Assembly: GCA_964617845.1 (NCBI GenBank)
Contig: CAZUAR010000003.1
Coordinates: 133,908-197,907, forward strand
From: an uncultured Kofleriaceae bacterium
GTDB lineage: Bacteria > Myxococcota_A > Polyangia > Haliangiales > Haliangiaceae
Direction: 5' to 3'
Length of the DNA: 64,000 bases
In this document: in pieces, positions 39,445 through 57,856 of the stretch
Position numbering within the stretch: position 1 is the first letter of the stretch
Layout: each line of letters starts with the position of its first letter
Translations under genes and position numbers: made by a program
The notes under the pieces: model-generated
What the model saw: only the letters and a program-made list of their open reading frames with translations
Databases searched by the model: none
Told to the model about the DNA's origin: nothing

Positions 39445-39485
39445 GAATCATAACGAAGGCGACCTAAAAGTCTACACAACGACCA

Positions 39486-40670: not shown

Positions 40671-41218
40671 TGGAGGTCACGATGATGGTCGGGCAGATAT
40701 CTCTGACAGCACCCGCGGCGCCGGCTCTCGCGAGCCCGCGGGTCCTTCCTCTCTTGATGGCGGCGACGACGCCGATCGCGATCGGCGGGCTCGTCGCGAT
40801 GCACGGGACGTCGATCTCGCCGCTGTTCGCGGTGCCCGCCGTCGTGTTCGGCGTGACCGCGGCGACGAGCCCCGCGCTCTACATCGCGACCGCGGCCACC
40901 GGCGCGGCGCCGCCCCTCGCCGCGGTCGTGCGCGCGTTCGGTGTCGCGATCGGCGCGTTCGGGATCGCGCTCGCGGGCCTGCTCTTGCCCGTCGCGTTCC
41001 TGTCGCTCTCGGCCGTCTCCGGATCGACGACGTTCTTCGTCGCATCGGCGGCGATCGCGGGCGCCGGGCTGCTCGGGCTCCGGCGCCTCAAGGACGAGAT
41101 GCACGCGGCGCGACCGATGTCGTTCAGCGGCGACGTCGTGTTCTGGATCTGGGCGAGCGCGACCGCCGGCATCGCCGGCCGCATGTGGTGGGACCTCGCG
41201 CAGGAGGTGCTGTCGTGA
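40655..41218 (+). CDS. Polytopic membrane protein, hypothetical
   Basis: Ala/Gly-rich TM helices. GTGA overlap with the next gene. Confidence 0.5.
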   Translation: MVDSSLEVTMMVGQISLTAPAAPALASPRVLPLLMAATTPIAIGGLVAMHGTSISPLFAVPAVVFGVTAATSPALYIATAATGAAPPLAAVVRAFGVAIGAFGIALAGLLLPVAFLSLSAVSGSTTFFVASAAIAGAGLLGLRRLKDEMHAARPMSFSGDVVFWIWASATAGIAGRMWWDLAQEVLS

Positions 41219-42012
41219 TCGGCACCGGACGCGTGTTCGACGAGCTCGGAACACTGCCAACGGCCCCCGCGGTCCCCGTCGCGACGCCGCGACCCTCGGG
41301 CCCGTTCGCCGCGATCGATCAGCTGCTGCGCGATCGCGACGGGATCCTCGCGCGCATCATCACCGGCAAGGACCTCGTCGCGACGATGAAGGTGATGGTC
41401 GCGACGATCGCGGTGTGCATGGCGATCGTCGGCGCTGCGCTCGGCAGCTATCGCGGCGGCGTGCAGATCGGCTACGCCGCGCTCAAGCTCCCGCTCGTCC
41501 TGCTCGGGACCGCGGCGCTGGCGGCGCCGGCGTTGACGGCGATCGGCGCGGCGGCCGGGCGGCGCGTGCGGCTGACCGCGGACCTCGTGCTCGTCGTGAG
41601 CGCGCTCGCGTTCGGATCGCTCTTGCTCACCGCGTGCACGCCGCTGTTCCTGCTGTGCATCGCGATGAAGCGCGAGTACCACGACATGATCCTCGTGACG
41701 GTCGGGCTGTTCTCGCTCGCGGGCATCGCCTCGCTGCGGATGATCGTGCAAGGGGTGCGCCTCGAGGCGGCGGAGTCGCCGCGCGGATGCACGAGTGCGG
41801 TCCTCGGTCTGTGCATCGTGTTCGCGCTCGTCGGTGGTCAGCTGTCGTGGGCGCTGCGCCCGTACCTGGTGCGCCCGCGCGCGCCGGAGGTCGTGTTCGT
41901 GCGCTCGGTCGAGGGCTCGCTGTTCGACGCGATCACCACGACGCTCGAGTCCGCGCGTGGTCACTTCGAGCGCGACGAGGCGCCGGTGCCCGACGAGGAG
42001 TACTACCGATGA
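41215..42012 (+). CDS. Polytopic membrane protein, hypothetical
   Basis: GTG at 41215 overlaps the upstream TGA. Six or more TM helices. Stop overlaps the ATG of the next gene. Confidence 0.5.
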   Translation: MIGTGRVFDELGTLPTAPAVPVATPRPSGPFAAIDQLLRDRDGILARIITGKDLVATMKVMVATIAVCMAIVGAALGSYRGGVQIGYAALKLPLVLLGTAALAAPALTAIGAAAGRRVRLTADLVLVVSALAFGSLLLTACTPLFLLCIAMKREYHDMILVTVGLFSLAGIASLRMIVQGVRLEAAESPRGCTSAVLGLCIVFALVGGQLSWALRPYLVRPRAPEVVFVRSVEGSLFDAITTTLESARGHFERDEAPVPDEEYYR

Positions 42013-42659
42013 GCCTCGGTCTCCTCGGCGCCGGCTACGCCGCGATCGGTGCGGTGCTCGCGGTCGGGTGTGCCGCGATGCGACGCGCGAGCGTGGGCGA
42101 CGTGATCCTGCTGTTGATCGTATGGCCGATCGCGTTGCCGCTCGTGCTCGCGTCGCGCTCCGACGATGCCGAGAGCGGCGAGCTCGTCGCCGCGCTCGCG
42201 CGCGCTTCCGCATCACCGCTCGCCTCGGTGCTCCCGGACGCGGAGACCGGACGCGTGCTGCAGTCTCGCGTGCGCGAAGCGGCGACGCGGCTCGTCGAGC
42301 TCGACGAGCTGCTCGCGCGACCCGACTTCGATCCCGCCGCCGCCGAGCGCCGCGCGGGCGAGCTCGCATCGCGCGGTGCGGTCGCCGCCGCGACGACGGC
42401 GCAGCTTCGGGTGCGCACGCTCGGGCAGCTCCGCGCGCTGCGCGAGCGCTACCGCGCAGAGCTCGAGGAGGTGCGCGAGCTGATCGCGCAGCTCGTCACG
42501 CAAGCGGAGCTCGTGCGCTTGCAGCCGTCGATCGCGCAGGCGTCGAGCGAGCTGGTGCGAGAGTTGGTCACACGCGTCGAAGGGCTCGACGACCTGTTCG
42601 CGATCCAGGCAAACCTCGATGGCGCGGAATACTCGACGGCGGCGGAGCGTTCGAGCTAG
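42009..42659 (+). CDS. Hypothetical protein with N-terminal TM helices and coiled-coil C-terminus
   Basis: ATG at 42009 (ATGA overlap). MSLGLLGAGYAAIGAVLAVGCAA...ILLLIVWPIALPLVLA, then heptad-like RVREAATRLVELDELLAR...LRERYRAELEEVRELIAQLVTQAELVRLQ. Confidence 0.5.
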   Translation: MSLGLLGAGYAAIGAVLAVGCAAMRRASVGDVILLLIVWPIALPLVLASRSDDAESGELVAALARASASPLASVLPDAETGRVLQSRVREAATRLVELDELLARPDFDPAAAERRAGELASRGAVAAATTAQLRVRTLGQLRALRERYRAELEEVRELIAQLVTQAELVRLQPSIAQASSELVRELVTRVEGLDDLFAIQANLDGAEYSTAAERSS

Positions 42660-42662
42660 GCC

Positions 42663-43349
42663 ATGGCGACCATCCTCGTCGTCGATGATGACGCGCACAT
42701 CCGCGAGGTCGCGCGGTTCGCCCTGGCGCGCGCCGGACACGCGGTCGAGCTCGCGACGGACGGCGCCGCCGCGCTCGCGCGGATCGAGCAGCGCGCGCCC
42801 GACCTCGTCGTCCTCGACGTGCTCATGCCCGAGCTCGATGGTCTCGCGCTGTGCCGCCGCCTGCGCACGCAGTCTCACCGCGTGCCGATCGTGTTCCTGT
42901 CATCGCGCACCGAGGAAGCGGACCGCGTGCTCGGCCTCGATCTCGGCGCAGACGACTATTTGACCAAGCCGTTCTCGCCGCGCGAGCTCGTCGCGCGCGT
43001 GGCCGCGGTCCTGCGCCGCACGTCCGACACCATCGCGGCGGCCGTTCCCGCGGCCCTGCCGCTGCTCGCGGTCGGCGAGGTCGCGATCGATCGCGATCGC
43101 CACGAGGTCACCGTCGGCGGCTCGCAGCTCGATGTCACCGCGACGGAGCTTCGCCTCCTCGCGACGCTCGCCTCGCATCGCGGGCGCGTGCTGTCGCGCG
43201 GCCAGCTGATCGCGACGGTGTACGGCGACGATCATCACATCAGCGAGCGCACGATCGACACCCATGTCCGCAACCTGCGCGCGAAGCTCGCCGCCGCAGG
43301 GGCGCCCGTGATCGAAACGGTCCATGGCGTCGGCTATCGCTGCAGCTAG
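42663..43349 (+). CDS. OmpR-family response regulator
   Basis: Receiver ILVVDDDAHIREV...DLVVLDVLMPELDG...KPF. The winged helix ends with VIETVHGVGYRC. Confidence 0.9.
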   Translation: MATILVVDDDAHIREVARFALARAGHAVELATDGAAALARIEQRAPDLVVLDVLMPELDGLALCRRLRTQSHRVPIVFLSSRTEEADRVLGLDLGADDYLTKPFSPRELVARVAAVLRRTSDTIAAAVPAALPLLAVGEVAIDRDRHEVTVGGSQLDVTATELRLLATLASHRGRVLSRGQLIATVYGDDHHISERTIDTHVRNLRAKLAAAGAPVIETVHGVGYRCS

Positions 43350-44790
43350 GCGCCTCGCACGGCACCTCGCGCGCATTCGCTATCGGCTGCTGCTGATCAA
43401 CCTGATCGTCGCCGCGGTGCCGATCGTCGGCATCTCGTTCGCGAACATGCACGAGCGCCAGCTCCTCGCCGCGCTCGAGCAGGACATGATCCATCAAGCG
43501 CAGCTCGTCCGCGCGCAGATCACGACGGATCCCGCCCGCGCGCTCGAATCCCACCAGTCGACGCTCGTCGTCGCCGCGCGCTCGACGCGTACGCGCATCC
43601 GCATCGTCGACACGACCGGCGCGGTCCGCGCGGACTCGCATCGCGGTGGTCCGCCCGAGGGTGCCGAGCGAGCCGTGCCGCAGCTGTTTGGCGAATCGCC
43701 GACGCATCCGCCCGAGGTGCCGCGGCCGATCGACCTCGCGTCGCGGACCGAGATCCAGGCAGCGCTCGCCGGTCGCTACGGCTCCGCGACGCGGCTCTGG
43801 GACAACCAGGATCGCGTGTACCTGTTCTCCGCGTTGCCGGTGGTGATCGGCAAGAAGGTCACCGCGGTCGTCTACGTCACGCGCTCGACGCACGACGTGA
43901 AGCTCCAGCTCTACGCGCTGCGCACGTGGCTCGTGCGCCTGCTCGTCGCATCGATCGCCGGCACCGCGCTCCTCACCCTGATCCTCGCGACGACGATCGC
44001 GCGCCCGCTCGGACGCCTCACCCGTCGCGCGAAGCGTATCGCCGCGCGTCAGCCCGTCGAGCCAACCGAGCGCTTGACGCGACGCCGCGACGAGATCGGC
44101 GAGCTCGCGCGCGCGGTCGCGACGATGACCGCCGAGCTCGAGCGCCGCGCCCACGACGCACGCACGCTCGCCGCCGACATCTCGCACGAGTTCAAGACAC
44201 CGCTGACCGGCATCCGCGGCGCGGCCGAGCTCCTCCGCGACGGCGCCGCCGAGGACCCCGAGGCGCGCGATCGCTTCCTCGCGATGATCGTCGACGACAC
44301 CGAGCGCCTCGATCGTCTCGTCTCGCGCCTGCTCGAGCTCGCGCGCGTCGACGACGATCGCACGACGCAGCTACCGGTCGATCTCGCGGATCTCGCGCGC
44401 CAGAGCGCGACCGCACGACCGTGGCCCGTGCCCGTCGATGTCGCCGCCGACAGCTGCGTGGTCGCGGGCCGCTCGGCCGCACTCGCCTCCGCGATCGACA
44501 ACCTCGTCGCGAACGCGACCCAGCACGCGGACGCCGGCTCGCGCGTCGCGATCGCGATCACGCGGGACGGCGATCGCGCCCGCGTCTCCGTGTCCAACCA
44601 CGGCCCTGCTCTGTCCGCCGCCGCGCATACGAAGGTCTGGGATCGGTTCTACTCGACGCGTCACGCCGAGGGCGGCTCGGGCCTCGGCCTCGCGATCGTT
44701 CGCTCGGTCGCGCTCGCACATGGGGGCACCGTCGGCGTCGACTGTTCCGAAGGAATTACGACGTTTTGGTTCGAGCTCGCGACCGCGTGA
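43324..44790 (+). CDS. Sensor histidine kinase (TM - HAMP - HisKA - HATPase_c)
   Basis: H-box ADISHEFKTPLTGIRGAAELL. N-box NLVANATQHA. G-boxes SNHGPAL and GGSGLGLAIVRSVA. 26-nt overlap with the regulator gene. Confidence 0.9.
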   Translation: MASAIAAARRLARHLARIRYRLLLINLIVAAVPIVGISFANMHERQLLAALEQDMIHQAQLVRAQITTDPARALESHQSTLVVAARSTRTRIRIVDTTGAVRADSHRGGPPEGAERAVPQLFGESPTHPPEVPRPIDLASRTEIQAALAGRYGSATRLWDNQDRVYLFSALPVVIGKKVTAVVYVTRSTHDVKLQLYALRTWLVRLLVASIAGTALLTLILATTIARPLGRLTRRAKRIAARQPVEPTERLTRRRDEIGELARAVATMTAELERRAHDARTLAADISHEFKTPLTGIRGAAELLRDGAAEDPEARDRFLAMIVDDTERLDRLVSRLLELARVDDDRTTQLPVDLADLARQSATARPWPVPVDVAADSCVVAGRSAALASAIDNLVANATQHADAGSRVAIAITRDGDRARVSVSNHGPALSAAAHTKVWDRFYSTRHAEGGSGLGLAIVRSVALAHGGTVGVDCSEGITTFWFELATA

Positions 44791-44850
44791 CCCGAGGGGG
44801 CTTGCGCGCAAAATGGTCCGGACTTAGCTCCGACTTCGTAAGGAGGTTCG

Positions 44851-45354
44851 ATGCGACGTTTACAAGCTTTGCTGTTCACAGCGGGCTTGGTGGCGGCGCC
44901 TACGAGCGCGGCCGCCGGGACCCCGGACACCAACGGTCCACCGCCCGCCGCACAGACCACCCAGGACAAGGGCCGACTCGGCGTCCTCGTGATGAGCCCC
45001 ACGCCGGAGCTCCGGCTACACATGGGATCGACCCGCGACCGCGGCCTGCTCGTCGCACGTGTAGAGCCGGGTACGCCGGCCGCGGTCGCGGGGATCCAGG
45101 TCGGCGACTTGATCGTCGAGGTGAAGGGGCGCGCTGTCGACACGACGCGCGATCTCGTGACCTCTCTCGCACCGATCGGGAAGAATCAGTCGGTGTCGAT
45201 CGGTCTACTGCGCGACAAGAAGCCGATCACCGTCCAGGCCACGATGAAAGACGACCGGGCAGACACGTGGAGCAGACTCCCCCTCATCAACGAGCTGATG
45301 CGTCCGTTCCTCGCGCCGATCCTGCCCGAGCGTGAGACCGCTTTGCGTACCTGA
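44851..45354 (+). CDS. Secreted PDZ-domain protein
   Basis: Signal peptide and GRLGVLVMSPTPELRLHMG...GLLVARVEPGTPAAVAGIQVGDLIVEVKGRAV (PDZ). Strong RBS AGGAGG 8 nt upstream. Confidence 0.6.
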   Translation: MRRLQALLFTAGLVAAPTSAAAGTPDTNGPPPAAQTTQDKGRLGVLVMSPTPELRLHMGSTRDRGLLVARVEPGTPAAVAGIQVGDLIVEVKGRAVDTTRDLVTSLAPIGKNQSVSIGLLRDKKPITVQATMKDDRADTWSRLPLINELMRPFLAPILPERETALRT

Positions 45355-45380
45355 AGTTCATAGATCGAAGGAGACAACCC

Positions 45381-45842
45381 ATGCAGAGCTATCTCTGGAA
45401 TCCATGGTCGGTCTTCGACGAGCTCGAGCGTTCGATGTTCGCGACGAGCTCGCCGAGCTGGCCGCAATTCGACATCGAAGACACGGAAGACGAAACCATT
45501 CTCACCGCGGACATGCCGGGCATGTCCAACGATGACATCGACATCACCGTTGCCGGCTCGTACCTCACGATCCGCGGTCAGCGCAGAGCGAAAGAAGGAC
45601 GCTATCTGCGCCGCGCACGATTCTGTGGTTCGTTCGAACGCACGTTCCAACTCGGTGAGCAGTACGACCTCGATCATGTCGACGCCAACCTCGTAAACGG
45701 CGAGCTGACGATCCGCTTGGTCAAGGCGGCCAGGGCCAAGCCGCGGAAGATCAAGCTCGGCAGCAGCCTCGCGCAGAAGGTGAAGGGACTCCTCGGCGTC
45801 GAGAAGGAGAAGGACAAGGAGAAACAGGAACAGGCGGCATGA
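45381..45842 (+). CDS. Hsp20/alpha-crystallin family small heat-shock protein
   Basis: ILTADMPGMSNDDIDITVAGSYLTIRGQRR...GSFERTFQLGEQYDLDHVDANLVNGELTIRL is the alpha-crystallin domain. RBS GAAGGAGA upstream. Confidence 0.85.
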   Translation: MQSYLWNPWSVFDELERSMFATSSPSWPQFDIEDTEDETILTADMPGMSNDDIDITVAGSYLTIRGQRRAKEGRYLRRARFCGSFERTFQLGEQYDLDHVDANLVNGELTIRLVKAARAKPRKIKLGSSLAQKVKGLLGVEKEKDKEKQEQAA

Positions 45843-45963
45843 ACCACCGCGCATGGCGGAAGAACCACGACGGCAAGGTCTGGGACCTGATCCAGCTGGC
45901 CACGTCGAGGCCGTCGTACGGGTCTTCCGCCATGCGCGCCCCTTTTCGGATGGACACACGGAG

Positions 45964-46398
45964 ATGAAGACGACCTCGGATATCTGGAGACCGATCGCCT
46001 ACGTCGCACTGCAAGACACGATCACGCGGACGCGCGTGGTCAGCACGCTCGAACGCGCGGGCTGGATGGTGTTCCCGCAGCCAACCGGGTTTCACGTTCT
46101 GTCGGCGATCGCGGACGTGATCGACAACCGCGCGTGGCTCCGGCCCGGTCTCATCGTCATCGACGCGTACGCACGCGGCTGTGCGGGCACGACGATCGCC
46201 GCGGGGCTGCGCGATCTCGGCATCGCGATCCCGATCGTGTTGATCGCGGCGCCGAGCGAAGCCCTGCCGCTGTCGAGCGACGACATGGTTCGCATCACCG
46301 AGAGCGCGAGCGCGGAGACCGTCGTGGACGAGCTCGCGCGGAAGCCGTGGATGATCGAGCCACGCGGGCGACCACCCGGTAACGCGATGGCGAGCTGA
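45964..46398 (+). CDS. Single-domain receiver-like (CheY-like) protein
   Basis: PIAYVALQDTITRTRVVSTLERAGWMV...RPGLIVIDAYARGCAG...IPIVLIAAPSE matches the receiver fold pattern. ATG at 45964. Confidence 0.5.
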   Translation: MKTTSDIWRPIAYVALQDTITRTRVVSTLERAGWMVFPQPTGFHVLSAIADVIDNRAWLRPGLIVIDAYARGCAGTTIAAGLRDLGIAIPIVLIAAPSEALPLSSDDMVRITESASAETVVDELARKPWMIEPRGRPPGNAMAS

Positions 46399-46445
46399 CG
46401 CTGGCCCGGCTTGGCGCACGCGCGGATGTGAGCGAGGATGCGCCG

Positions 46446-47294
46446 ATGAAGCTCTTCGCGTTGGCGTGTGTCGCGCTCCTGGCCGCGTGTCCTCCTCCAG
46501 GAAACACCACCGGTGGCGGCGGTGGCCGTGGTCGGGGCGGCGGTGGCATCAGCCCCGACTCGTGCGGGAAGATCGACACGAACGATACGGGTCGCAAGCT
46601 GTACTCGTTCCTCGTCGCGTCCGCGGAGCTCGACAAGGCGAGCCTCGCGCTCGAGGCCTCGATCGCGGGCGCGTGCCGGCGCATGGCGGCCGAGCTCGGC
46701 GTCGATCAAAGCGGCGACACCAAGACGGTGTGCACGCGCGCGGCCAACGAGCTCGACGCGAACCTGAAGGTCAGCGTGAAGACCGAGTCGCGCCTCGTCA
46801 CGAAGCACACGCCCGCCGTCTGCGAGACGAAGGTCGACCTCGAGGCCGGCTTCATCGCCGAGTGTGAAGGCCGCGCCGTCGCGAACAACGCGGGCGCCAG
46901 CGCGTCCGCCGAGTGCCGGGCGTCCGCCGGGATCCGCGCGACCACGCGCACCGAGTGCACCGAGCCGAAGGTCGAAGTCGTTCGCGAGAACGTCACCGTC
47001 GTCGACGACTCGAAGTTCCAGAAGGCGGTCGCCGCGATCAACGCGGGCATGCCGGCGATCCTGCGGGCGTCGAAGAAGCTCGAGCTCGCGGGCGAAGCGG
47101 TCGCGAACTGGGTGAAGACCGGCGCGGACCTGGTCGCGTCGTCGGGCAAGCTCGTCGCCGATCTCGGCGAGCACGGCGTGTGCGTCGCGGGTCAGCTGGT
47201 TGCCGTGGCAGCCGCGAGCGCGAACATCCAGGCGCGCCTCTCGGTCTCGATCGAGGTCTCCGCGTCGGTCAGCGCATCGGCCGGCGCGCGCTGA
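46446..47294 (+). CDS. Lipoprotein, hypothetical (Cys-rich)
   Basis: MKLFALACVALLAAC lipobox, a Gly-rich linker and several conserved Cys. Confidence 0.55.
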   Translation: MKLFALACVALLAACPPPGNTTGGGGGRGRGGGGISPDSCGKIDTNDTGRKLYSFLVASAELDKASLALEASIAGACRRMAAELGVDQSGDTKTVCTRAANELDANLKVSVKTESRLVTKHTPAVCETKVDLEAGFIAECEGRAVANNAGASASAECRASAGIRATTRTECTEPKVEVVRENVTVVDDSKFQKAVAAINAGMPAILRASKKLELAGEAVANWVKTGADLVASSGKLVADLGEHGVCVAGQLVAVAAASANIQARLSVSIEVSASVSASAGAR

Positions 47295-47300
47295 TCGGCG

Positions 47301-48449
47301 CTAGTCGTCTTCGCCCGGCACCGGCTCTTCGAGGTACGACGACACCGGGCGATCGTTGACGAAGTCATCGACCCACTGCGCGAGCGTCATGTTCTGCGCT
47401 TCGACATCGGAGTCGACGAAGTTGAAGAGCGTGGTGCAGTGGCTGTCGTTGATCGGGCGGTAGTAGGGGATGAAGTAGTAGAGGTTGTCGCGCGTGTTGA
47501 ACTCGTCGACGAGGAGCAGCGTGTCGTCGTTCCAGTGCGACAGGATCTCTTCCTTGTCGGTGTCCTCGTCGAGGTTGTAGAAGCGCTCGTACGAGTACAG
47601 CGAGAAGTTGTAGTCGCGGCGGAAGTACGTCGTACCGAGGCGATCGTTCGGGAACTCGTCGGCGAGCGCCGTGTTGATCGTGCCCATGTCGTCGAGCGTG
47701 AAGCCCTCGGGCATCAGCGGCGTGAGCGAGTCGAGGTTCCACGCCGAGCGGATCTTCTCGTGCAGCGGCTTGGAGAACCCCGACGACGGGAAGATCGGCC
47801 CCGAGTCGTTGATCAGGTACGCCTTCTCGACGGCGCTGACGCCGTTGCGAAGGAAGCGGTAGTTGACGATCGAACCGACACCGCCGGCAGAGCAGCCCGT
47901 CGAGAGCAGCTTCGGCACGTGCGTGAAGTTCGCGTCGATCCACTTCACGACCTCCTGGACGGCGGCGTGACCGTCGTGATGGAACTCGAGATCGGGATCC
48001 ATCTCGTCGCCGCTCTCGTAGACCACCGTGGTCGCGCCGGTGTGGACGTCGCCGGTGCAGTACGGCACCCAGACGTAGTTCCAGTTCATCGACGGGCTCG
48101 TGTCGTCGACGCGGGAGAGGAACGGCGAGATGAACGACGCGAGGTCGTAGTCGGTGTCTTCGAGGCCATCGGGGTGCGCCGCGCCGCGGATGCCGTTGCG
48201 CCCCGCGCACGAGTCGTAGTCCCAGCACGCACCGCCGGGCTCGAACACGACCGCGAGGTTGTCACTCTTGTTCGAGAAGTTGACCCAGAACTTGTACTGG
48301 GTGCCGTTGCCGCAAACGATGCCCGGCGGCTCGATCTTGATCCACTGGTCGTACGCGTCGCGAGCGGGATTCTGGATCGCTTCCTCTCCGTCGAGGTTGT
48401 CACCACACGCCGCGAGCAACGCAACAACGACGAGCCCCACTCGGTTCAT
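47301..48449 (-). CDS. Secreted lipoprotein of pectin acetylesterase/Notum-like alpha/beta hydrolase family
   Basis: MNRVGLVVVALLAAC lipobox. LAVVFEPGGACWDYDSC...VWVPYCTGDVHTG...LSTGCSAGGVGS resemble PAE/Notum motifs, including the GCSAGG nucleophile elbow. Confidence 0.6.
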   Translation of the reverse strand: MNRVGLVVVALLAACGDNLDGEEAIQNPARDAYDQWIKIEPPGIVCGNGTQYKFWVNFSNKSDNLAVVFEPGGACWDYDSCAGRNGIRGAAHPDGLEDTDYDLASFISPFLSRVDDTSPSMNWNYVWVPYCTGDVHTGATTVVYESGDEMDPDLEFHHDGHAAVQEVVKWIDANFTHVPKLLSTGCSAGGVGSIVNYRFLRNGVSAVEKAYLINDSGPIFPSSGFSKPLHEKIRSAWNLDSLTPLMPEGFTLDDMGTINTALADEFPNDRLGTTYFRRDYNFSLYSYERFYNLDEDTDKEEILSHWNDDTLLLVDEFNTRDNLYYFIPYYRPINDSHCTTLFNFVDSDVEAQNMTLAQWVDDFVNDRPVSSYLEEPVPGEDD

Positions 48450-48547
48450 GAAGCCGACGCTACGACGATGTCCCGACGGGGCCAAGCTGAAAAAACTTTC
48501 ACATTCGAATGTGCGAGCTTCACTAAGCCGAGCCGTGGGTGATCGAC

Positions 48548-50818
48548 TCACTGCGTCGGATCATCGCGATTCGAGCCGCGACCACCGCCGTAGCGGTCCC
48601 ACACGTTGACGCCGCCGTTGGTCGTGGTCCCGCTGCCGTCGTGCTTGCCCGACGGACGGCTGGAGCCGCTCTGCGTCGGATCCGACGACTTCGCGGCGAC
48701 GAGCTCGAGCGCGAACTCGCGCGGCGGACCGTCGAGCGTCTGCACCTTGAAGCGCAGCGTGCCCCCGCGACTCGTGAGCGCCGCGTGCTCGTCGGTCGCG
48801 ACCTTGGCGAACGTCTGCGCGTCGGTGACGTCTCGGCCCGAGACCGCGAGCACGATGTACTGCGTGGCGATGCCGAGCTTCTGCAGCGGGCCCGTGTCGA
48901 GCTTGGTCAGGATCGCGCCCGACTCGAGCTTGGGATAGCGCCAGCCGACGAGCGGGAACAAGCCGACGGTGGTGGCGCCGAGCGCCGTGTCCTGCTTCGC
49001 GTACGCCGCGGCGAGCTTCGCGAGCTCGGTCGCGCCGAGCGAGACCTGGGCGAACGCGACCACACGCTTGCCATCGGCGCTCGCGTACTCCTCCCAGTAG
49101 CGGGCCGTCGGCGCCGACGGAACCGCGCCGCCGCTCGTCGCGCGCAGGATGCGGCCGACGGCGTTGCGCGCCTCGCGCACGTCGCGGCGCGCGCTCGTGT
49201 TCGACGGATCGCGATCGAATGCGGCGAGCTTCGCGTCGCGCGTGGCCTGGTAGATCGGCACCACCGCGCGCTTCCACACGGCGTCGTCGATGCGCACCGC
49301 GATCGCGTTCGCGGCGGCGTCGAGCGCCGCGTCGAACGCTTCGTCCTCGGCGTCGTCCTGGCGCGACGACATCGACGAGACACCGACGCACGAGATGCCC
49401 TTCGCCGCGGTCTCGGTGCACGTCACGCTGTTCGGTGCGTCGGCGACGATCCACGCGGGGCGCGTTTCGGCGCTCTTGCTCGTCACCTTGCCGAACTCGG
49501 TCTCGGCGCCGCCCTTGCCCGTCACGCGCTGGTACGCGAGGTAGCCGCCGGCGGCGAGCACGACGGCGATCAGCGCCGCGAGCACCGGAACGAGGAGGCT
49601 CGAGCGCGGCTGCTCGACGGGGATCTGCGGCGACGATGCGACCTGCTTCGCGCTCGGCTTGCGATCGCGATGCACTTGCAGCGCGCGCTCGCGCAGGATG
49701 CCGATCGACTTCACGAGATCGGCCGACGCGGTCGGCTTCGGCAGCAGCGGCAAGAGCGTCATCACGATCTCGCCGGCCTGACACTGCATCGCGTGACGAC
49801 ACGTGGAGCAGCGCAGCTCGGGCGCGGTCGCGAACTTGAGCACGTCGTAGTGCTCCGCGACGTCGATCAGCTCGCCGGTCGTGGTGCCGCAGCTGGTGCA
49901 ACCGTACGGCAGCGTCAGCGTGACGACCTGGCCCTTGGGCGCGAGATCCTCCGGGCTACACAGCTTCTCGAGGAAGGCCGGCGGGACGCTCGCGAGGTAG
50001 ATCGCGTCGACGAGCGGCGCGACCATCTTCACGAAGCCGCGCCACTCGGCGGCGCCCGCGGGCTCGATGCGTCCGATCGACGACAGGTCGACGATCACGC
50101 TGCCCTCGAGGCCCTCGGCGAGCTTCTCGCGCGGGAACGTGCGATCGAGATCGCCGGTGAGCTTGAGGTACGTCGTGCGCCCTTCGATGATCTTGTCGAC
50201 GCGCAGCTTGCGATTGAGATCGCTGACCGCGTAGTTGAGCTTCGCGCCGAGGAAGGCCGCGACCTCGGGCTCGAGCTCGAACTTCGACTGGCTGATCAGG
50301 TACGAGAAGAACGTCGCGCCGTCCTCGTCGAAGTACATCGCTTCTTTGCACGAGGGGCACGGCCGCTCCGCGAGCTTCATCGTCTTGATCGTCTCGAAGT
50401 CCTTGTCGACCTGGAGAAGGACGCGATGCTCCGAGTCGCAGTAGTCACACTTGAACGGCGCGTAGAAGCTGAACACGCGGCCGCCGCCCGTGAAGTTCGC
50501 GACCATGTTGAGCTGGTCGACGACCTTGGGCGTGCACTCGACGAGGATCATCGAGCGGCACAGCTTGTTCGCTGTCGTCACGAAGTCGACCCACTCGCGG
50601 ATACCGAACGACGAGATCTTCTTCACGCCGCCGAGATCGAGGACGAGCGTGTCGCAGCCGGCGGTGGCGCCGAGCTTCTTGCCCTCGAAGCCTTCGTCGA
50701 TCGTGCCGGAGAACTTCAAGCACGCGATGCCGCCGTCGGCGAACTTCTCGACGGAGAGCTTCGGCGCTCCGTCGGCGGGGTAGACCGGTTGGGACGGACG
50801 ATGCGGAACAGCTTGCAT
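48548..50818 (-). CDS. Membrane protein with two tandem STAS-like domains each followed by a Cys4 zinc-ribbon, one TM helix and a periplasmic region ending in a PDZ-like domain
   Basis: ATG at 50818. STAS-like CDTLVLDLGGVKKISSFGIREWVDFV + CDYCDSEH...CPSCKE. Second STAS-like SVIVDLSSIGRIEPAGAAEWRGFV + CTSCGTT...CSTCRH. TM LLVPVLAALIAVVLAAGGYLAY. PDZ-like ILTKLDTGPLQKLGIATQYIVLAVSGRDV. The upstream 318 codons of the listed ORF are Arg-rich shadow sequence. Confidence 0.6.
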   Translation of the reverse strand: MQAVPHRPSQPVYPADGAPKLSVEKFADGGIACLKFSGTIDEGFEGKKLGATAGCDTLVLDLGGVKKISSFGIREWVDFVTTANKLCRSMILVECTPKVVDQLNMVANFTGGGRVFSFYAPFKCDYCDSEHRVLLQVDKDFETIKTMKLAERPCPSCKEAMYFDEDGATFFSYLISQSKFELEPEVAAFLGAKLNYAVSDLNRKLRVDKIIEGRTTYLKLTGDLDRTFPREKLAEGLEGSVIVDLSSIGRIEPAGAAEWRGFVKMVAPLVDAIYLASVPPAFLEKLCSPEDLAPKGQVVTLTLPYGCTSCGTTTGELIDVAEHYDVLKFATAPELRCSTCRHAMQCQAGEIVMTLLPLLPKPTASADLVKSIGILRERALQVHRDRKPSAKQVASSPQIPVEQPRSSLLVPVLAALIAVVLAAGGYLAYQRVTGKGGAETEFGKVTSKSAETRPAWIVADAPNSVTCTETAAKGISCVGVSSMSSRQDDAEDEAFDAALDAAANAIAVRIDDAVWKRAVVPIYQATRDAKLAAFDRDPSNTSARRDVREARNAVGRILRATSGGAVPSAPTARYWEEYASADGKRVVAFAQVSLGATELAKLAAAYAKQDTALGATTVGLFPLVGWRYPKLESGAILTKLDTGPLQKLGIATQYIVLAVSGRDVTDAQTFAKVATDEHAALTSRGGTLRFKVQTLDGPPREFALELVAAKSSDPTQSGSSRPSGKHDGSGTTTNGGVNVWDRYGGGRGSNRDDPTQ

Positions 50819-51747
50819 CAGTGATGACTCCAGAAGTGCAGCGACTTCGCCTGCGTGCGGAACTCTCGGAGGTTCATGTCGAGCTCGAACAACGCGGTGA
50901 CCTCCGTGTGCTTCTGCGGCACGACGTCGAAGAACATCGCCGACGACGCGTTGTGACACACCATCATCCCGAGCCCCGCGCCACCGTGTGTCTGATCCAT
51001 CTCGCCTCCTGCGAGCCCGCGCGCGAGGCCGTCGACGACGTGCCAGCGCTCGAGCCTGCCGAACGGATCGCGAACTTGCAGCACGAGACGCGTGCCGTCG
51101 GTGCCGAACCGCACCGTCGGGCGCTCGTGCACCTCGAGGACGATGTCGGCCTTGCGATCGCCGGCGTAGCGCGGGCGCCCCTGCGAATCGACGGGCGCGT
51201 CGTACATCGCGTTCATGAGCAGCTCGTGCGCGAGCTCGCCGAACATCTCGCCGATGCGCCGGGGCACGCCGAGGCCGTTGACGAGCTCGGCGAGGCGCGC
51301 GACCGCGAGATCGCGATCCGTCGTCGTGCGCACGTCGAGCTCGACGGCGGAGAAGCCCCAGTCGAGGTACGCGGCGAGCGCCGGCGCCGACGAGGACGGC
51401 GATGCGAGGCGCCGCGCGACCATCAGCACCTCCCACGGGCGCGGCGTCGACTCGAAGTCCTTGCGACCCAGGACGTGATCGATCGTGGTCGACTCGATCA
51501 TGTACTTCAGCGAGCGGCGCAGCGGCTCGGCGGTCCACAGCACGCCGCGCATGTTCGGCCTGCCGCGCAAGCGCTCGGCGACGAGGTCGGCATCGAACGT
51601 GTCGGCGCACAGCACGTCCGCGTTCTCGATCGCGGCGGCGACCTGCGCGGGTTCGTCGATCGCCTCGGCGCTCGCACCGGTCGCGAGAAACATGCGTGCG
51701 ACGCGGCGAGCGACGAGCTTGTTGCGATCGAAGATGACGGCGTGCAT
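50818..51747 (-). CDS. Receiver-like domain + RsbW/RsbT-like GHKL (HATPase_c) protein, paralog 2
   Basis: ATG at 51747. N-box GELAHELLMNAMYDAPVD. LQVRDPFGRL. G2 THGGAGLGMMVCHNASSAMFFDV. Clear similarity to 32010..33032 (ELLMNALYDAPVDDKGRP vs ELLMNAMYDAPVDSQGRP). TGA overlaps the ATG of the STAS protein (ATGA). Confidence 0.6.
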   Translation of the reverse strand: MHAVIFDRNKLVARRVARMFLATGASAEAIDEPAQVAAAIENADVLCADTFDADLVAERLRGRPNMRGVLWTAEPLRRSLKYMIESTTIDHVLGRKDFESTPRPWEVLMVARRLASPSSSAPALAAYLDWGFSAVELDVRTTTDRDLAVARLAELVNGLGVPRRIGEMFGELAHELLMNAMYDAPVDSQGRPRYAGDRKADIVLEVHERPTVRFGTDGTRLVLQVRDPFGRLERWHVVDGLARGLAGGEMDQTHGGAGLGMMVCHNASSAMFFDVVPQKHTEVTALFELDMNLREFRTQAKSLHFWSHH

Positions 51748-51943
51748 CGATGGGCGAGGGTTCGCGTTCCAAGACCCCGGCGAACGATCACACGGTACCA
51801 CGGAGATTCCGACGGGAAACCCATATGTTGGGCTACCCGTCGACGACCCGACGATGGTTCGTAATGACCGTGTGCCGTCGTACTTTGGGAGTCGGTGCGT
51901 GTGTGGTGCGTGTGTGATGGTCCCGTGCGATTTCGAGCGAGAA

Positions 51944-51961
51944 CGTGCATCGACCTGCACG
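51944..51961. promoter_or_regulatory. Perfect inverted repeat CGTGCA-N6-TGCACG in divergent intergenic region; adjacent tandem direct repeat (g)gtgcgtgtgtg x2 at ~51894..51916
   Basis: cgtgcatcgacctgcacg read directly. It lies between the divergent paralog-2 operon and the ferritin-like/CDGSH gene. Confidence 0.3.
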
Positions 51962-52040
51962 AGTGTCGAGGGACGCCGGCAGGTTCCCGGGCGATCGGCG
52001 AGCGGCATTGGCACCGCGAGGGCGTGTAGTGTCACGCGCG

Positions 52041-54017
52041 ATGGACACGCGTTCGAGCGAGGCCGAGCCCGAGATCCGCATCGATCACCGCGAGGCGCTC
52101 GCGTATCTGCTGACGGAGGCTGCCGAGATCGAGCACGGCCTCATGGATTGCTATCTCTACGCCGCGTGGAGTCTGGGACCGCGCGGCCTCGAGCGTCCTC
52201 ACGCCGAGGCGATCGAGCGCTGGCGCTCCGAGATCCTCGCGATCGCGCGCGACGAGATGGTCCACCTCGCGCTGGTGGCCAACCTCATCAACGCGATCGG
52301 TGCGACGCCGCACTTCCAGCGCTCGAACTTTCCCGTCGGACCGGGCTATCACCCCGCGGGCGTGGTGGTGCAGCTCGCGCCGTTCTGCCCGGCGACGATC
52401 GATCACTTCGTGTTCCTCGAGCGACCCGAGGGCGTCGACGCGCCCGATGGCGCCGGCTTCACGCCGGGCACGTACACGCGTGCCGCGCGCGAAGGTCGCC
52501 TCGTTCCGGGTGCGCACGACTATCGGACGGTCGGTCACCTCTATCGCGGCATCGAGCGCGGACTCGAGCGCCTGACGGAGCTGCTCGGTGAACAGAACCT
52601 GTTCGACGGCGATCCGCGACTGCAGCTCACATCCTCGATCGTCGGCCTGCCCGGCATCACGGCGATCACCGACCTCGCGAGCGCGCGCGCCGCGCTCGAG
52701 GCGATCGTCGCGCAGGGCGAAGGCGCGCCCGAGCACGGCGATGACTCGCACTACGCGCGGTTCTGCAAGATCCGCGACGAGCTCCACGCGATCCGCGAGG
52801 CCGATCCATCGTTCGCGCCGGCGAGCCACGTCGCGACGAACCCGGTGATGCGCAAGCCTCCGTCGCCGGGAAACCTCGTGTGGATCGACGCCGAGCCAGC
52901 GGCGAGCGTCCTCGACGTGGGGAACGCGATCTACGCGTTCATGCTGCGCGCGCTCAACACGGTCTGCTCGCCGGTCTCGCTCGCACCCGGCGCGCGATCG
53001 CTCGCTCTCGACGCGACGACGCTGTCGATGCGCACGCTGACGCCGGTCGCCGAGCTCCTCACGACGTTGCCGGCATCGGACGCGCACCCCGACATCCACG
53101 CCGGTCTGACGTTCACCATGTCTCGCTCGGTCAACGCGATGCCCGAGCCGCGCGGCGCGTTTCGTGCGCTGTCCGAGGGTGCGCGCGGCATCGTCGGCGG
53201 ACTGCGCGCGCACGTGTTGCCGCTCGCGGCGAGCATCGAGCCCGCGATCGCGGCGCTCGAGCGCCTCGCCGAAGAGCTCGCCGCCACCGCAGATGCTGCG
53301 CCCGCTCCGCACTTCGGTGACACCGGCGTCGCCTCGACGGTGGCGACCGCGCGAAGAGCGCCGCTCGAGTACACGGCGGGCGCGATCGAGACGGCGCGAG
53401 GCGAGAAGGTCACGATCCACTTCGAAGCGAAGCGCTGCATTCACTCGCGCCACTGCGTGCTCGACGCGCCAACGGTGTTCCTGGCGAACGTGAAGGGCCC
53501 GTGGCTCTACCCGGACACCGTCGACGCGGAGCACCTCGCGCACGTCGCGCAGACCTGCCCCTCGGGCGCGATCACCTACGAGCGCCACGACGGCGGCCCC
53601 GAAGAGAAGCCGCCCGCGGTCAACCAGCTGCGCCTTCGCGAGAACGGCCCGTACGCGATCCACGCCGACGTCAGGCTCGTCGGCACGGGCACGCTGCTGC
53701 GTGCGACGCTGTGCCGCTGCGGCGCGTCGGCGAACAAGCCGTTCTGCGATGGCTCGCACAACGTGATCGAGTTCCGCGCGACCGGCGAGCCCGAGACTCG
53801 CGCGTCGGAGCCACTCGCGATCCGCGGCGGCGAGCTCGAGGTGCGCCCGACCGACAACGGCCCGTTGCAGGTGACCGGCAACCTCGAGATCTGCGCCGGC
53901 ACCGGCCGCACCGTCGATCGGGTCACGACCGCCCGGCTGTGCCGATGCGGCGGGTCGGCGACAAAGCCGTTCTGCGACGGAACGCACGCGAAGATCGGCT
54001 TCCGCTCGGACATCTAG
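52041..54017 (+). CDS. Ferritin-like diiron domain protein fused to Fe-S domain and two CDGSH-type iron-sulfur domains
   Basis: N-terminal ferritin-like EAAEIEHGLMDCYLYAAW...DEMVHLALVANLI (ExxH pairs). C-terminal KRCIHSRHCV, then CRCGASANKPFCDGSH and CRCGGSATKPFCDGTH (two CDGSH motifs). Start at 52041 because the upstream in-frame codons have low GC3. Confidence 0.65.
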   Translation: MDTRSSEAEPEIRIDHREALAYLLTEAAEIEHGLMDCYLYAAWSLGPRGLERPHAEAIERWRSEILAIARDEMVHLALVANLINAIGATPHFQRSNFPVGPGYHPAGVVVQLAPFCPATIDHFVFLERPEGVDAPDGAGFTPGTYTRAAREGRLVPGAHDYRTVGHLYRGIERGLERLTELLGEQNLFDGDPRLQLTSSIVGLPGITAITDLASARAALEAIVAQGEGAPEHGDDSHYARFCKIRDELHAIREADPSFAPASHVATNPVMRKPPSPGNLVWIDAEPAASVLDVGNAIYAFMLRALNTVCSPVSLAPGARSLALDATTLSMRTLTPVAELLTTLPASDAHPDIHAGLTFTMSRSVNAMPEPRGAFRALSEGARGIVGGLRAHVLPLAASIEPAIAALERLAEELAATADAAPAPHFGDTGVASTVATARRAPLEYTAGAIETARGEKVTIHFEAKRCIHSRHCVLDAPTVFLANVKGPWLYPDTVDAEHLAHVAQTCPSGAITYERHDGGPEEKPPAVNQLRLRENGPYAIHADVRLVGTGTLLRATLCRCGASANKPFCDGSHNVIEFRATGEPETRASEPLAIRGGELEVRPTDNGPLQVTGNLEICAGTGRTVDRVTTARLCRCGGSATKPFCDGTHAKIGFRSDI

Positions 54018-54094: not shown

Positions 54095-55243
54095 ATGTCG
54101 GCGCCGAAACGCGCGTGCTACCGTGGGCCGGTGAGGTTCTTCGGCGGAGCCATGCTCGCGCTCGTGTTGCTGGTGCAGGGCGCATCGGCGGCCCCGACGC
54201 CCGAGCTGTTCCACACGGTCAAGACCGGCACCTCGCGCGCGAAGCTGTCCGAGTCCCTCGTCGCACCGGCGAAGAAGGCGGCGAAGGCCCGCGACTGGTC
54301 GAAGGCGATCCCGCTGTATCAGGCGCTCACCGTCGCGCGCGGCGCGGGCTCGCCCGAAGCGAAGCAACTCGCGACGCTGTGGACGCTCGCCGGTCAGAAC
54401 CAGCGCGCGGCCGAGGCGTGGACGTCCTACGCGGAGGCGGTGAAGGACGACAAGGAACGCGAGGCGGCGACCGCCGAGGCGCTGCGGCTGAGCGCCAACG
54501 AAGACCCGTTCGCCGACAAGCTCGCGCTCGCGTCGATGACCGCCGAGGCGAAGAAGGCGTTCGCGGCGGGCCGAAAGGCATACGCGGCCAAGCAGTACGC
54601 GGACGCGATCGTCCAGTTCCACATGGGGATGGTGCTCGCGCCCGATCTGCCCGGCTTCTTGCGCGAGCTCGGGAGCACCTACGACAAGCTCGGTGCGCAG
54701 GCGCAGAAGCGCGAGTTCTACCTGCGCTATCTCGTGCAGCGGCCGATCGGCGCGAACGCCGATGTCGTCCGGGCGGAGCTATCGAAGAACCCCGAGGACA
54801 AGAAGCAGCTCGGCACGCTGATGATCACGTCGAGCTTGCCGTGCGTGGAGCTGTGGGTGAACCGGCAGCGGATCACCGGCAAGCCGCCCGGCAAGGGGAT
54901 CGTCGTCGCGCCCGGCAACTACAAGGGACTCTGCTTCAACCCGAAGTACGAGATGGCGCTGTTCGAGTACGCGAACGTCGAGGCGGGCAAGCCGGCATTG
55001 ATGACGTTCACGTGGGCCATCGTGCAGAACAAGCTCGAGAAGCCGTTCGGCCGGATCGCGCTCGAGAACCCGAAGTCCCCGGGCTTGATGATAGATCTCG
55101 GCATCACCTCGTCGGAGATCGGCGTAGCGGCGCCCGCCGACGGCCGCAAGCTGAAGATGATCCTCAAGGATGATTCGGGTGCGCGAGTCGAGGAGCGCAG
55201 CGTGAAGATCGAGCCCGGGCAGAAGCTCGTCGTCACCTGGTGA
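54095..55243 (+). CDS. Secreted TPR-like repeat protein, hypothetical
   Basis: Signal MLALVLLVQGASA (alternative ATG at 54152). Ala/Lys-rich helical repeats. Beta-rich C-terminus. Confidence 0.5.
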   Translation: MSAPKRACYRGPVRFFGGAMLALVLLVQGASAAPTPELFHTVKTGTSRAKLSESLVAPAKKAAKARDWSKAIPLYQALTVARGAGSPEAKQLATLWTLAGQNQRAAEAWTSYAEAVKDDKEREAATAEALRLSANEDPFADKLALASMTAEAKKAFAAGRKAYAAKQYADAIVQFHMGMVLAPDLPGFLRELGSTYDKLGAQAQKREFYLRYLVQRPIGANADVVRAELSKNPEDKKQLGTLMITSSLPCVELWVNRQRITGKPPGKGIVVAPGNYKGLCFNPKYEMALFEYANVEAGKPALMTFTWAIVQNKLEKPFGRIALENPKSPGLMIDLGITSSEIGVAAPADGRKLKMILKDDSGARVEERSVKIEPGQKLVVTW

Positions 55244-55292: not shown

Positions 55293-56510
<1,218 letters not shown>

Positions 56511-56552: not shown

Positions 56553-57137
56553 ATGGCGAAAACTGACGTCGACTTCGGCCAGGCGAAGCAGATCAGCATC
56601 ATCATCGTCATCGCGACGGCGGCGCTGAATGCCGCGTTCTACTTCCTGTCGCAGATGTACTTCGAGGACCGCGCCGCCACCTACGGCATGGCGTCGCCCG
56701 AGGCGATCAAGGCCACGCGCGTCGCGTTCGGCGTGATGTCCGGCGTCGTCGGCGTCACCGCGATCATCACGCAGTTCGCGCCGCGCCTGCTCGCGCACGC
56801 CCTCGCCGGCATCGTCGCCATCGCCGCGCTCGTCGGTGCGGGCGCTGCCTTCAACAAGGACTACCACCCGGTGCTCGGCGTCGCGCTCGGCCTGATCGGC
56901 GTGTTGCTGATCGTGCTGATCTACCTCTCGCTCCAGAGCAAGTCGCGCCCCGCCTGGTCGTTCCTGGTCGCGACGTGCGCCGTCGGTGCGCTCGTGACGC
57001 TGTTCGGTGCGACGAAGATCCGCAACGCCACCGATGTCAGTCTGTACTACGCGCTGATCCTGCCGGGCATCCTCATCGTCGCGACGGTGATGTTGATCAA
57101 CCTCGCCGACGACTACGCGGAACCCGCAGACCGCTGA
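56553..57137 (+). CDS. Polytopic membrane protein, hypothetical
   Basis: Five hydrophobic helices. No known motif. Confidence 0.55.
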   Translation: MAKTDVDFGQAKQISIIIVIATAALNAAFYFLSQMYFEDRAATYGMASPEAIKATRVAFGVMSGVVGVTAIITQFAPRLLAHALAGIVAIAALVGAGAAFNKDYHPVLGVALGLIGVLLIVLIYLSLQSKSRPAWSFLVATCAVGALVTLFGATKIRNATDVSLYYALILPGILIVATVMLINLADDYAEPADR

Positions 57138-57220: not shown

Positions 57221-57856
57221 ATGGCACTGCAGCTTGGAGACGACGTACCGGATTTCACCGCTGAGACGACCGAGGGCACGATCAACTTCCACGAGTACCT
57301 CGGCAACGGCTGGGGCGTGCTGTTCTCGCACCCCAAAGACTTCACGCCCGTGTGCACGACCGAGCTCGGTCGCGTCTCCGCGCTCAAGCCGGAGTTCGAC
57401 AAGCGCAACGTCAAGGTGGTCGGCCTCTCCGTCGATCCGCTCGGCTCGCACAAGGAGTGGGCGAACGACATCAAGGAGACGCAGGGACACGCGCTCAACT
57501 TCCCGCTCGTTGCCGACGCGGACAAGAAGGTCGCGAACCTCTACGGCATGATCCATCCGAACGCGAGCGACACGCTCACGGTGCGCTCGGTGTTCATCAT
57601 CGGCCCCGACAAGAAGCTGAAGCTGTCGCTCACGTATCCGGCGAGCACCGGCCGCAACTTCGACGAGATCCTGCGCGTGATCGATTCGCTGCAGCTCACG
57701 GCGAAGCACAAGGTCGCGACGCCGTCGGACTGGAAGCAAGGCGGCGACGTGATCATCGTCCCGTCCGTCTCGAACGAGGACGCGCAGAAGGCGTTCCCGG
57801 ACGGATGGAAGACGCTGAAGCCGTACCTCCGCGTCGTCCCGCAGCCGAAGAGCTGA
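57221..57856 (+). CDS. 1-Cys peroxiredoxin (Prx6-type)
   Basis: LFSHPKDFTPVCTTELG with the peroxidatic Cys motif PVCTTE. 211 aa. RBS GGAGG upstream. Confidence 0.9.
   Translation: MALQLGDDVPDFTAETTEGTINFHEYLGNGWGVLFSHPKDFTPVCTTELGRVSALKPEFDKRNVKVVGLSVDPLGSHKEWANDIKETQGHALNFPLVADADKKVANLYGMIHPNASDTLTVRSVFIIGPDKKLKLSLTYPASTGRNFDEILRVIDSLQLTAKHKVATPSDWKQGGDVIIVPSVSNEDAQKAFPDGWKTLKPYLRVVPQPKS

Follow-up and report, generated by a model that had tools for sequence, protein, structure and literature searches.

A candidate membrane-tethered module of the partner-switching type, linked to Hanks-type protein kinases, in an uncultured Kofleriaceae bacterium

Partner switching, as in RsbW/RsbV and SpoIIAB/SpoIIAA, is a textbook bacterial switch that usually employs small soluble proteins and controls a sigma factor. 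Two adjacent genes of an uncultured Kofleriaceae bacterium, here called A and B, constitute an architectural variant of this switch that is widespread, uncharacterised and consistently linked to eukaryotic-like protein kinases. They lie in a 64,000-nt stretch of DNA, hereafter the window (GenBank assembly GCA_964617845.1, contig CAZUAR010000003.1, positions 133,908 to 197,907 of the forward strand). We suggest, with moderate confidence, that their products form a membrane-tethered module of the partner-switching type. Its novel traits are a putative antagonist that is itself a transmembrane (TM) sensor with a periplasmic PDZ domain, a putative kinase that carries a pseudo-receiver, and the tie to Hanks-type kinases.

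The likeness to RsbW–RsbV and SpoIIAB–SpoIIAA lies in the C-terminal domain of A, which has a Bergerat fold with N-box, G1 and G2 motifs, in the STAS fold of B with a serine at the acceptor position, and in the adjacency of the two genes; paralogous operons, described below, add a SpoIIE-type PP2C phosphatase (cf. RsbU/SpoIIE). However, RsbV and SpoIIAA are soluble antagonists of 110 amino acid residues (aa), whereas B is a membrane protein of 756 aa with two STAS–Cys4 units, a periplasmic sensor region and a PDZ domain. Unlike RsbW and SpoIIAB, A carries a degenerate receiver, its locus is linked to a Hanks-type kinase and not to a sigma factor, and its similarity to known families stays below Pfam thresholds. 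By analogy, the A/B module would work like RsbW/RsbV-type partner switching, but it falls outside this class when membership is strictly defined by the thresholds of hidden Markov models (HMMs) and by a STAS partner that is small and soluble.

Receivers joined to RsbW-like kinases that act on a STAS protein occur in SypE–SypA of Vibrio fischeri, HsbR–HsbA of Pseudomonas and CrsR–CrsA of Shewanella, with outputs other than, or besides, sigma factors. SypE, HsbR and CrsR carry PP2C in the same polypeptide and have small, soluble STAS partners, whereas A is devoid of PP2C and B is membrane-anchored and tandem. Partner switches with non-sigma outputs also include SiaABCD of Pseudomonas and HenR/All4160 of Anabaena (bioRxiv 10.64898/2026.04.08.717354); their STAS-like partners, SiaC and All4160, differ from B, the outputs are a diguanylate cyclase and a polysaccharide enzyme, and, unlike the A/B locus, neither system has a zinc ribbon, a periplasmic PDZ domain or a linked Hanks kinase. 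The architecture of A has a precedent in LvrC of Leptospira, for which a receiver plus RsbW-fold (Bergerat) structure has been solved (PDB 9qih; PMC13269768, 2026). The LvrC receiver is canonical and phosphorylatable (D53) and is fed by the histidine kinase LvrB, whereas that of A is without the acidic pair and is not conserved family-wide; moreover, sigma-factor binding was proposed for LvrC and no STAS partner was described, while A has the STAS partner gene B. In Polyangia, fusions of eukaryotic-like kinases (ELK) of the Hanks type with a COG1366 STAS domain were recorded in Sorangium cellulosum without further analysis (PMC2887360, 2010). They probably correspond to the kinase–STAS–zinc ribbon–TM paralogues reported below, but that record is limited to the fusions, without zinc ribbons, tandem organisation, the membrane and PDZ part or an obligatory A-like partner gene.

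A full-text literature search yielded no description of the tandem STAS–Cys4-ribbon unit or its membrane/PDZ context, nor of the pseudo-receiver–GHKL partner family or its systematic linkage to a dedicated Hanks-kinase subfamily; it brought up just the 2010 record of ELK–STAS fusions, the structure of LvrC and the preprint on Anabaena. The first-pass annotation of the window, made from the sequence alone, had likewise not recognised the architecture as a described system. Its comparison of the pair to a stressosome kinase wired to a transmembrane protein gained no specific support from features of RsbT/RsbR/RsbS: the nearest folds of A are RsbW and SpoIIAB, RsbR and RsbS match the STAS domains of B structurally no more strongly than RsbV or SpoIIAA, and among the examined genes of the conserved cluster neither an RsbR-like N-domain nor an RsbS-like small protein was seen.

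The two genes are as follows.

Gene A, 50818..51747, minus strand: cytoplasmic protein of 309 aa with receiver-like and RsbW/SpoIIAB-type GHKL domains, start MHAVIFDRNK
Gene B, 48548..50818, minus strand: bitopic membrane protein of 756 aa, start MQAVPHRPSQ

Gene A begins with the ATG at 51747 and ends with the TGA at 50818..50820; the ATG of gene B is at 50816..50818 and its stop codon at 48548..50. At the junction (cacTGATGcaa) a single base belongs to both the A stop codon and the B start codon (TGATG, 1-nt overlap), and the two genes are translationally coupled. The region has a GC content of 63-72%, and the window contains many spurious long open reading frames (ORFs). Since database relatives are numerous (1186 for A and 549 for B), with 96-100% query coverage and 63-100% identity among the best 120 of each, A and B are real genes rather than high-GC artefacts; the relatives come from Kofleriaceae, Haliangiales and 'Myxococcales' metagenome-assembled genomes (MAGs). 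Both start codons are borne out by orthologue alignments. An alternative single gene, the ORF 48548..51772 (1074 codons), was rejected: its N-terminal 318 codons are Arg/Ala-rich and run out of frame over gene A, and orthologues of B begin with MQAV or MEAV. The coordinates, reading frames and TGA/ATG overlap given in the first-pass annotation are correct, as are the two motifs that it quoted, ELLMNAMYDA (A residues 175-184) and GGAGLGMMV (residues 255-263).

Conservation of the pair was assessed in one genome per GTDB species, which gave 305 stretches with relatives; locus counts out of 80 refer to the best 80 of these (L004-L083; 54-91% identity to A), all from Kofleriaceae, Haliangiales or unclassified myxobacterial MAGs, with window proteins as tblastn queries. 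In 78 of these 80 species representatives gene B comes immediately after gene A (the exceptions are L035 and L068), so that the neighbourhood check proposed in the first-pass annotation came out in favour of the pair.

Protein A comprises two domains, with these parts.

Residues 1-115, 51403..51747, minus strand: degenerate receiver-like (beta-alpha)5 domain with E/D7-R8-N9, D49, T72 and R95-K/R96
Residues 130-290, 50878..51360, minus strand: Bergerat/GHKL domain with N-box, G1-like box, G2 and T281
N-box E175..N179, 51196..51225, minus strand
G2 box G255-G-A-G-L-G260, 50959..50985, minus strand

The C-terminal domain is a Bergerat alpha/beta sandwich. Its nearest folds are RsbW and SpoIIAB, the structural matches of A being UsfX/RsbW (8ih8_C, score 12.3), SpoIIAB (1l0o_A, 11.7), B. 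subtilis RsbW (6m36_A, 11.5), the RsbW domain of Rv1364c (3ke6_B, 10.9), SiaB (6kko_B, 10.4) and LvrC (9qih_B, 8.9). In an alignment of 41 family members with only 25-53% identity, E175, N179, A180, A184, P185, G190, D217, D227, F229, G230, G256-G260 and T281 are invariant; these residues form the N-box ELxMNAxYDAP, the G1-like DPFG and the G2 lid GGAGLG. By contrast with the fold, sequence models gave little: A has no Pfam or NCBIfam match at E<=1, short of the curated threshold for HATPase_c_2, and its relatives lend weak support through sub-threshold Pfam matches to HATPase_c (11/41), HATPase_c_2 (4/41, best E 2.7e-4) and Response_reg (1/41). Profile searches of the PDB from shallow orthologue alignments returned nothing useful, and only diverse profiles gave weak or significant matches. 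In these searches no GHKL chain was obtained at a meaningful E-value (the sole one was PhoR, E 1.3), and the A-family profile matched the receiver 3hv2_A (E 0.0034). The first-pass annotation had named the lack of a significant HMM hit as grounds for abandoning its RsbW/SpoIIAB-class GHKL assignment. Formally there is no such hit, but the fold, the invariant ATP-binding motifs and the family-level evidence overturn this objection, and the assignment stands.

For the N-terminal domain, the predicted receiver-like character was confirmed at the level of the (beta-alpha)5 CheY-like fold; as a receiver, however, it is degenerate. No residue is invariant across the whole family, and neither a complete phospho-pocket (DD, D, T/S, K) nor a match to Pfam Response_reg (PF00072) was found in A. 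Although D49, T72 and K/R96 are fixed in Kofleriaceae orthologues, the acidic pair reads E/D7-R8, and family-wide position 49 is Asp in only 19/41 members and W-P mostly occupies the Lys position. A role in dimerisation or regulation is more probable for this domain than His-Asp phosphotransfer.

An exhaustive profile search collected 2470 clusters of A-like sequences (50% identity) at E<=1e-3 and 1504 at E<=1e-10. With at least 2,470 such clusters and no Pfam or NCBIfam model, the family is a sizeable annotation blind spot in myxobacterial signalling. In other lineages the A module is fused to true receivers and to HAMP, 7TMR-DISM or PilZ domains, which points to a signalling output or relay module.

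Protein B (structure model with pLDDT 76.7) is composed of the following parts.

Residues 22-106, 50501..50755, minus strand: STAS1, with the invariant motif I68-S69-S70-F71-G72-I-R-E-W
Ser70 codon, 50609..50611, minus strand
Residues 113-163, 50330..50482, minus strand: Cys4 zinc ribbon 1 (C124, C127, C154, C157)
Residues 206-292, 49943..50203, minus strand: STAS2, with E252-P253 at the acceptor position (secondary structure of the model, hhalign)
Residues 296-346, 49781..49933, minus strand: Cys4 zinc ribbon 2 (C307, C310, C337, C340)
Residues 366-384: helix in the model
Residues about 408-434, 49517..49597, minus strand: single TM helix, sequence LLVPVLAALIAVVLAAGGYLAY (helix predicted at 410-434)
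Residues 443-608, 48995..49492, minus strand: periplasmic domain with beta strands, three long helices and invariant C467/C477
Residues 609-706, 48701..48994, minus strand: HtrA-type PDZ domain
Residues 712-756, 48551..48685, minus strand: disordered tail ending VNVWD..GG.G...RDDPTQ-COOH (orthologue alignment, model)

The prediction of two STAS-like domains, each followed by a CxxC...CxxC ribbon, proved right. All eight ribbon cysteines are invariant in 41 orthologues, those of ribbon 1 in paralogous modules too, and the STAS fold was recovered, with RsbR, RsbS, RsbV, SpoIIAA, SulP and MlaB among the structural matches. The two STAS-ribbon units align with each other (hhalign probability 99.1%, E 1e-18, 26% identity) and, judged from this alignment, are an internal duplication. 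In Pfam, STAS matches residues 55-106 of B below threshold (18.2 bits, cutoff 22.6), and PDZ_Tricorn gives a further sub-threshold match to B at E 0.04; 38 of the 41 orthologues match STAS at E<=0.1 (best 2.5e-5). A profile built from 11 diverse STAS-ribbon units matches a solved antagonist, the Haliangium anti-sigma antagonist 4hyl_A (E 1.9e-5), pairing the 'issFG' of the profile with 'MSSAG'. In length (756 aa) and composition (tandem STAS, ribbons, TM helix, periplasmic domain) B departs from the small, soluble, single-domain SpoIIAA/RsbV class.

Ser70 of STAS1, which we take to be the acceptor-equivalent residue by reference to the DSSG acceptor motif of SpoIIAA and RsbV, is invariant in the 41 orthologues and in the 11 paralogous units, whose acceptor motif reads [IV]-[ST]-S-[FY]-G-[ILV]-R-[EQ]-W. 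STAS2 reads E-P-A-G, with Pro253 in place of a conserved Ser/Thr acceptor. Of the two STAS domains viewed earlier as phospho-substrates, STAS1, which has Ser at the canonical site, is kept as a putative one, but STAS2 is not.

The hydrophobic helix at about 408-434 and the C-terminal portion of about 320 aa agree with the predicted TM helix and periplasmic part with a PDZ-like fold. B is predicted to reside in the inner membrane with N-in/C-out topology, because it has no signal peptide, the Cys4 ribbons and STAS domains need the cytoplasm, and Cys467/Cys477 and the HtrA-type PDZ domain follow the TM helix. Foldseek against the PDB found no specific structural relative of the N-terminal periplasmic subdomain, and the PDZ domain has the fold with its carboxylate-binding loop. 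HtrA-type PDZ domains of DegS and DegP bind C-termini of unfolded envelope proteins. In B, the PDZ domain is directly followed by a disordered, strongly conserved tail with the consensus GGVNVWD(K/R)xGGxxGSxRDDPTQ-COOH. A free conserved C-terminus adjoining a C-terminus-binding PDZ domain suggests binding of the tail by a PDZ domain, either its own or that of another molecule.

Upstream of gene A, a divergent operon on the plus strand comprises three genes.

TPR protein, 54095..55243, plus strand: 382 aa, signal peptide, Pfam TPR_9 sub-threshold, tblastn match upstream of A
PK405, 55293..56510, plus strand: soluble Hanks-type kinase of 405 aa, Pfam Pkinase E 2e-32
Protein u194, 56553..57137, plus strand: polytopic membrane protein of 194 aa with 5-6 TM helices, no Pfam or PADLOC family

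By a count made by eye in the tblastn table, this operon accompanies A and B in about 70 of the 80 loci; the 194-aa membrane protein follows the kinase in at least 45. PK405 is the best-conserved gene of the block (67-95% identity across loci). In 70 of 74 orthologues it has NRD-VSPxN (here NRDVSPSN) for HRDLKPxN and ARGGMAEV for the GxGxxG loop, while DFG and a VAIK-like Lys are kept; PK405 may thus be either atypical as a kinase or a pseudokinase. The GGMAE loop and the catalytic-loop signature are shared by all the kinases inspected next to A-like genes, namely PK405, the kinase PK990 described below, and the kinase parts of the L084 and L088 fusions. Given this co-conserved operon and the Hanks kinases fused to STAS-ribbon modules in paralogues, the characterisation of A/B as a self-contained pair was abandoned. 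Among nine related loci with Pfam-annotated gene calls, no sigma factor gene was called. PADLOC defence models matched neither A, B, the TPR protein nor the 194-aa membrane protein; the PD-T4-6 matches of PK405 are generic kinase-domain matches.

HMMs built from the STAS-ribbon units of B revealed the tandem module beside genes for remote relatives of A (25-40% identity). The operon of L084 and L088 reads [FIST-repeat ... STAS-zinc ribbon x2-TM-periplasmic domain][Pkinase-STAS-zinc ribbon x2-TM-periplasmic domain][A-like]. In L086/L087/L089-L091 and on the P0402 contig it reads [A-like][SpoIIE/PP2C][giant FIST protein], with a divergently transcribed Trans_reg_C-AAA16 regulator; the giant FIST proteins carry STAS-zinc ribbon x2 near their C-terminus (E 1e-30 to 1e-36), and in L091 a Pkinase-STAS gene comes after the giant FIST gene. 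These giant FIST/FIST_C-repeat proteins reach about 2,700 to 3,150 aa (L090 12289..20993, L091 12221..20464), and the public gene call of L091 (1130 aa from 17072) appears to truncate an open frame of 2747 codons.

A metagenomic sample of the A family comprised 80 further loci, 58 of them informative in that their sequence continues for 500 bp or more past the A-like gene. In these, the adjoining downstream gene encodes a STAS-zinc ribbon protein in 37, PP2C in 10, a second A-like protein in 3 and none of these in 8. Among loci of at least 6 kb, 29/30 contain a STAS-zinc ribbon module, a GGMAE-type kinase and/or PP2C. The association of A-like genes with STAS-zinc ribbon modules survives gene shuffling and domain fusion, since it recurs across paralogous operons and metagenomic loci, and by analogy A-like, STAS-zinc ribbon and PP2C proteins reproduce the kinase-phosphatase-STAS triad of classical partner switching. 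This recurrence is a stronger argument than synteny within Kofleriaceae.

The window itself holds a second member of the A family with its own kinase partner.

Second A-family paralogue, 32010..33032, minus strand: 340 aa, family HMM E 4e-51, motifs EELLMNALYDAP, DRFGRL and YGAGLG
PK990, 29051..32023, minus strand: 990-aa Pkinase-(Pro/Gln-rich linker)-TM-PEGA protein, kinase signature GGMAE / HRDVSPQN

The paralogue overlaps the start of PK990 by 14 nt; this gene pair lacks a STAS-zinc ribbon module and has a TonB-dependent receptor gene (33061..35985) upstream.

In the mechanism that we favour for the A/B module, A would bind STAS1 of B and phosphorylate Ser70 using ATP, and the phospho-state of B would govern the choice between retention of A at the membrane and its release towards a target. 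Phosphorylation of Ser70 would be opposed by a phosphatase, which in the paralogous operons is a PP2C and here would be encoded outside the A/B locus. Cues perceived by the periplasmic PDZ/sensor region and by the secreted TPR protein could in turn shift the phospho-state, the periplasmic region possibly acting together with the TPR protein or with the conserved C-terminal tail of B itself. As the constant companion, with no sigma factor gene in the nine annotated loci and with Hanks kinases joined covalently to the STAS-zinc ribbon-TM module in paralogous systems, PK405 would be a more likely output target than a sigma factor; its role as target or partner of A is speculative.

Several observations weigh against this mechanism. 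The G1-like box of A is D227-P-F-G230 and not DxGxG, and, with no curated HMM placing A in HATPase_c_2 and relatives giving sub-threshold matches, the kinase activity of A is deduced from fold and motifs. No PP2C homologous to those of the paralogous operons is encoded in the 64-kb window. Close synteny within a single family, Kofleriaceae, could partly reflect shared ancestry. Moreover, in paralogous systems a Hanks kinase is covalently fused to the STAS-zinc ribbon-TM module, and such a kinase, rather than A, could phosphorylate Ser70; and the pairing of the second A-family member with a Pkinase-PEGA protein without STAS suggests that the most constant partner of the A family may be a Hanks kinase. 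These last points lead to an alternative that assigns phosphorylation of the STAS serine to a Hanks-type kinase (PK405, or the cis-fused kinase of paralogues). A would then be an 'anti-factor', a binding partner, non-catalytic or ATP-gated, by which the phospho-state of B is sensed. Direct fusion of Pkinase to STAS-zinc ribbon x2 in L084, L088 and L091, the ELK-STAS fusions of Sorangium (PMC2887360), the rank of PK405 as the most conserved gene of the cluster and the adjacency of A-family genes to GGMAE kinases even where the STAS module is missing (window 29051..33032, L128, L166) all argue for this alternative. However, the NRD-VSPxN and altered Gly loop of 70/74 PK405 orthologues mean that these may be weak kinases or pseudokinases, the strict conservation of every GHKL ATP-binding motif of A is difficult to reconcile with a role in binding alone, and proteins of the SpoIIAB/RsbW fold are known STAS kinases; we regard this alternative as unlikely.

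In a scheme modelled on LvrC, which we consider distinctly less probable still, a histidine kinase would phosphorylate Asp49, A would release or sequester a sigma factor encoded elsewhere, and B would be the antagonist of A. Retention of D49, T72 and K/R96 in Kofleriaceae orthologues makes an anti-sigma role with Asp phosphorylation possible in this clade, and genes for a HAMP-HisKA kinase and an OmpR-type regulator, seen again in a few loci, lie at a distance of about 5 kb (42663..44790). Family-wide this role is unsupported. Against it, Asp49 and the Lys position vary as described above, the acidic pair of A is E/D-R, Response_reg does not match A, the annotated loci contributed no sigma factor gene, and the histidine kinase/regulator pair is found in only 2-3/80 loci. 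The occurrence of STAS domains in SLC26/SulP transporters and MlaB, both of which are among the structural matches of B, raises the question whether A and B are functionally unrelated neighbours, a transporter- or lipid-related STAS protein beside an unrelated ATPase. This is very improbable, as B, with just one TM helix, lacks a transporter domain, the stop and start codons of the genes overlap, and the pair is kept in 78/80 species and recurs in paralogous operons with PP2C.

A broader reading of the A family, offered tentatively and with doubt, is that its members are 'anti-kinases', RsbW-fold proteins whose targets are a dedicated subfamily of atypical Hanks-type kinases or pseudokinases (GGMAE; [HN]RD-VSPxN) instead of a sigma factor, and for which tandem STAS-zinc ribbon modules tethered to the membrane would serve as releasing antagonists. 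If true, this would be an undescribed hybrid path, with partner switching wired directly to eukaryotic-like kinase signalling across the envelope, and expanded to thousands of members in Polyangia. Should the mechanism favoured above for A and B hold, the locus would provide a tractable entry point to the route from envelope signals to cytoplasmic Ser/Thr phospho-networks in Myxococcota, and to the role of the many STAS-kinase fusions in Sorangium-type genomes.

Other neighbours of the locus were considered as well. A ferritin-like gene lies between the two operons.

Ferritin-like gene, 51945..54017, plus strand: 690-aa ORF with Ferritin-like, divergent 4Fe-4S Fer4_19 and two CDGSH domains

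It was rejected as a part of the system, being found beside A in 0/80 related loci; its absence from that position in all 80 points to a lineage-specific insertion into the shared regulatory region. A downstream pectinacetylesterase-like gene, present in only 14/80 loci, was not counted as a core component either. Beyond the divergent operon, a 1026-aa TPR-CHAT (caspase-like) protein (57863..60943, minus strand) adjoins a 1-Cys peroxiredoxin gene (57221..57856, plus strand); the CHAT protein is found in 0/80 related loci and the peroxiredoxin is syntenic in 20/80. Downstream of B, at 42663..45842 on the plus strand, genes for an OmpR-type response regulator, a HAMP-HisKA-HATPase_c kinase, a small PDZ protein (167 aa) and HSP20 stand in a row, which is common to only 1-3/80 related loci and resembles an envelope- or proteotoxic-stress neighbourhood.

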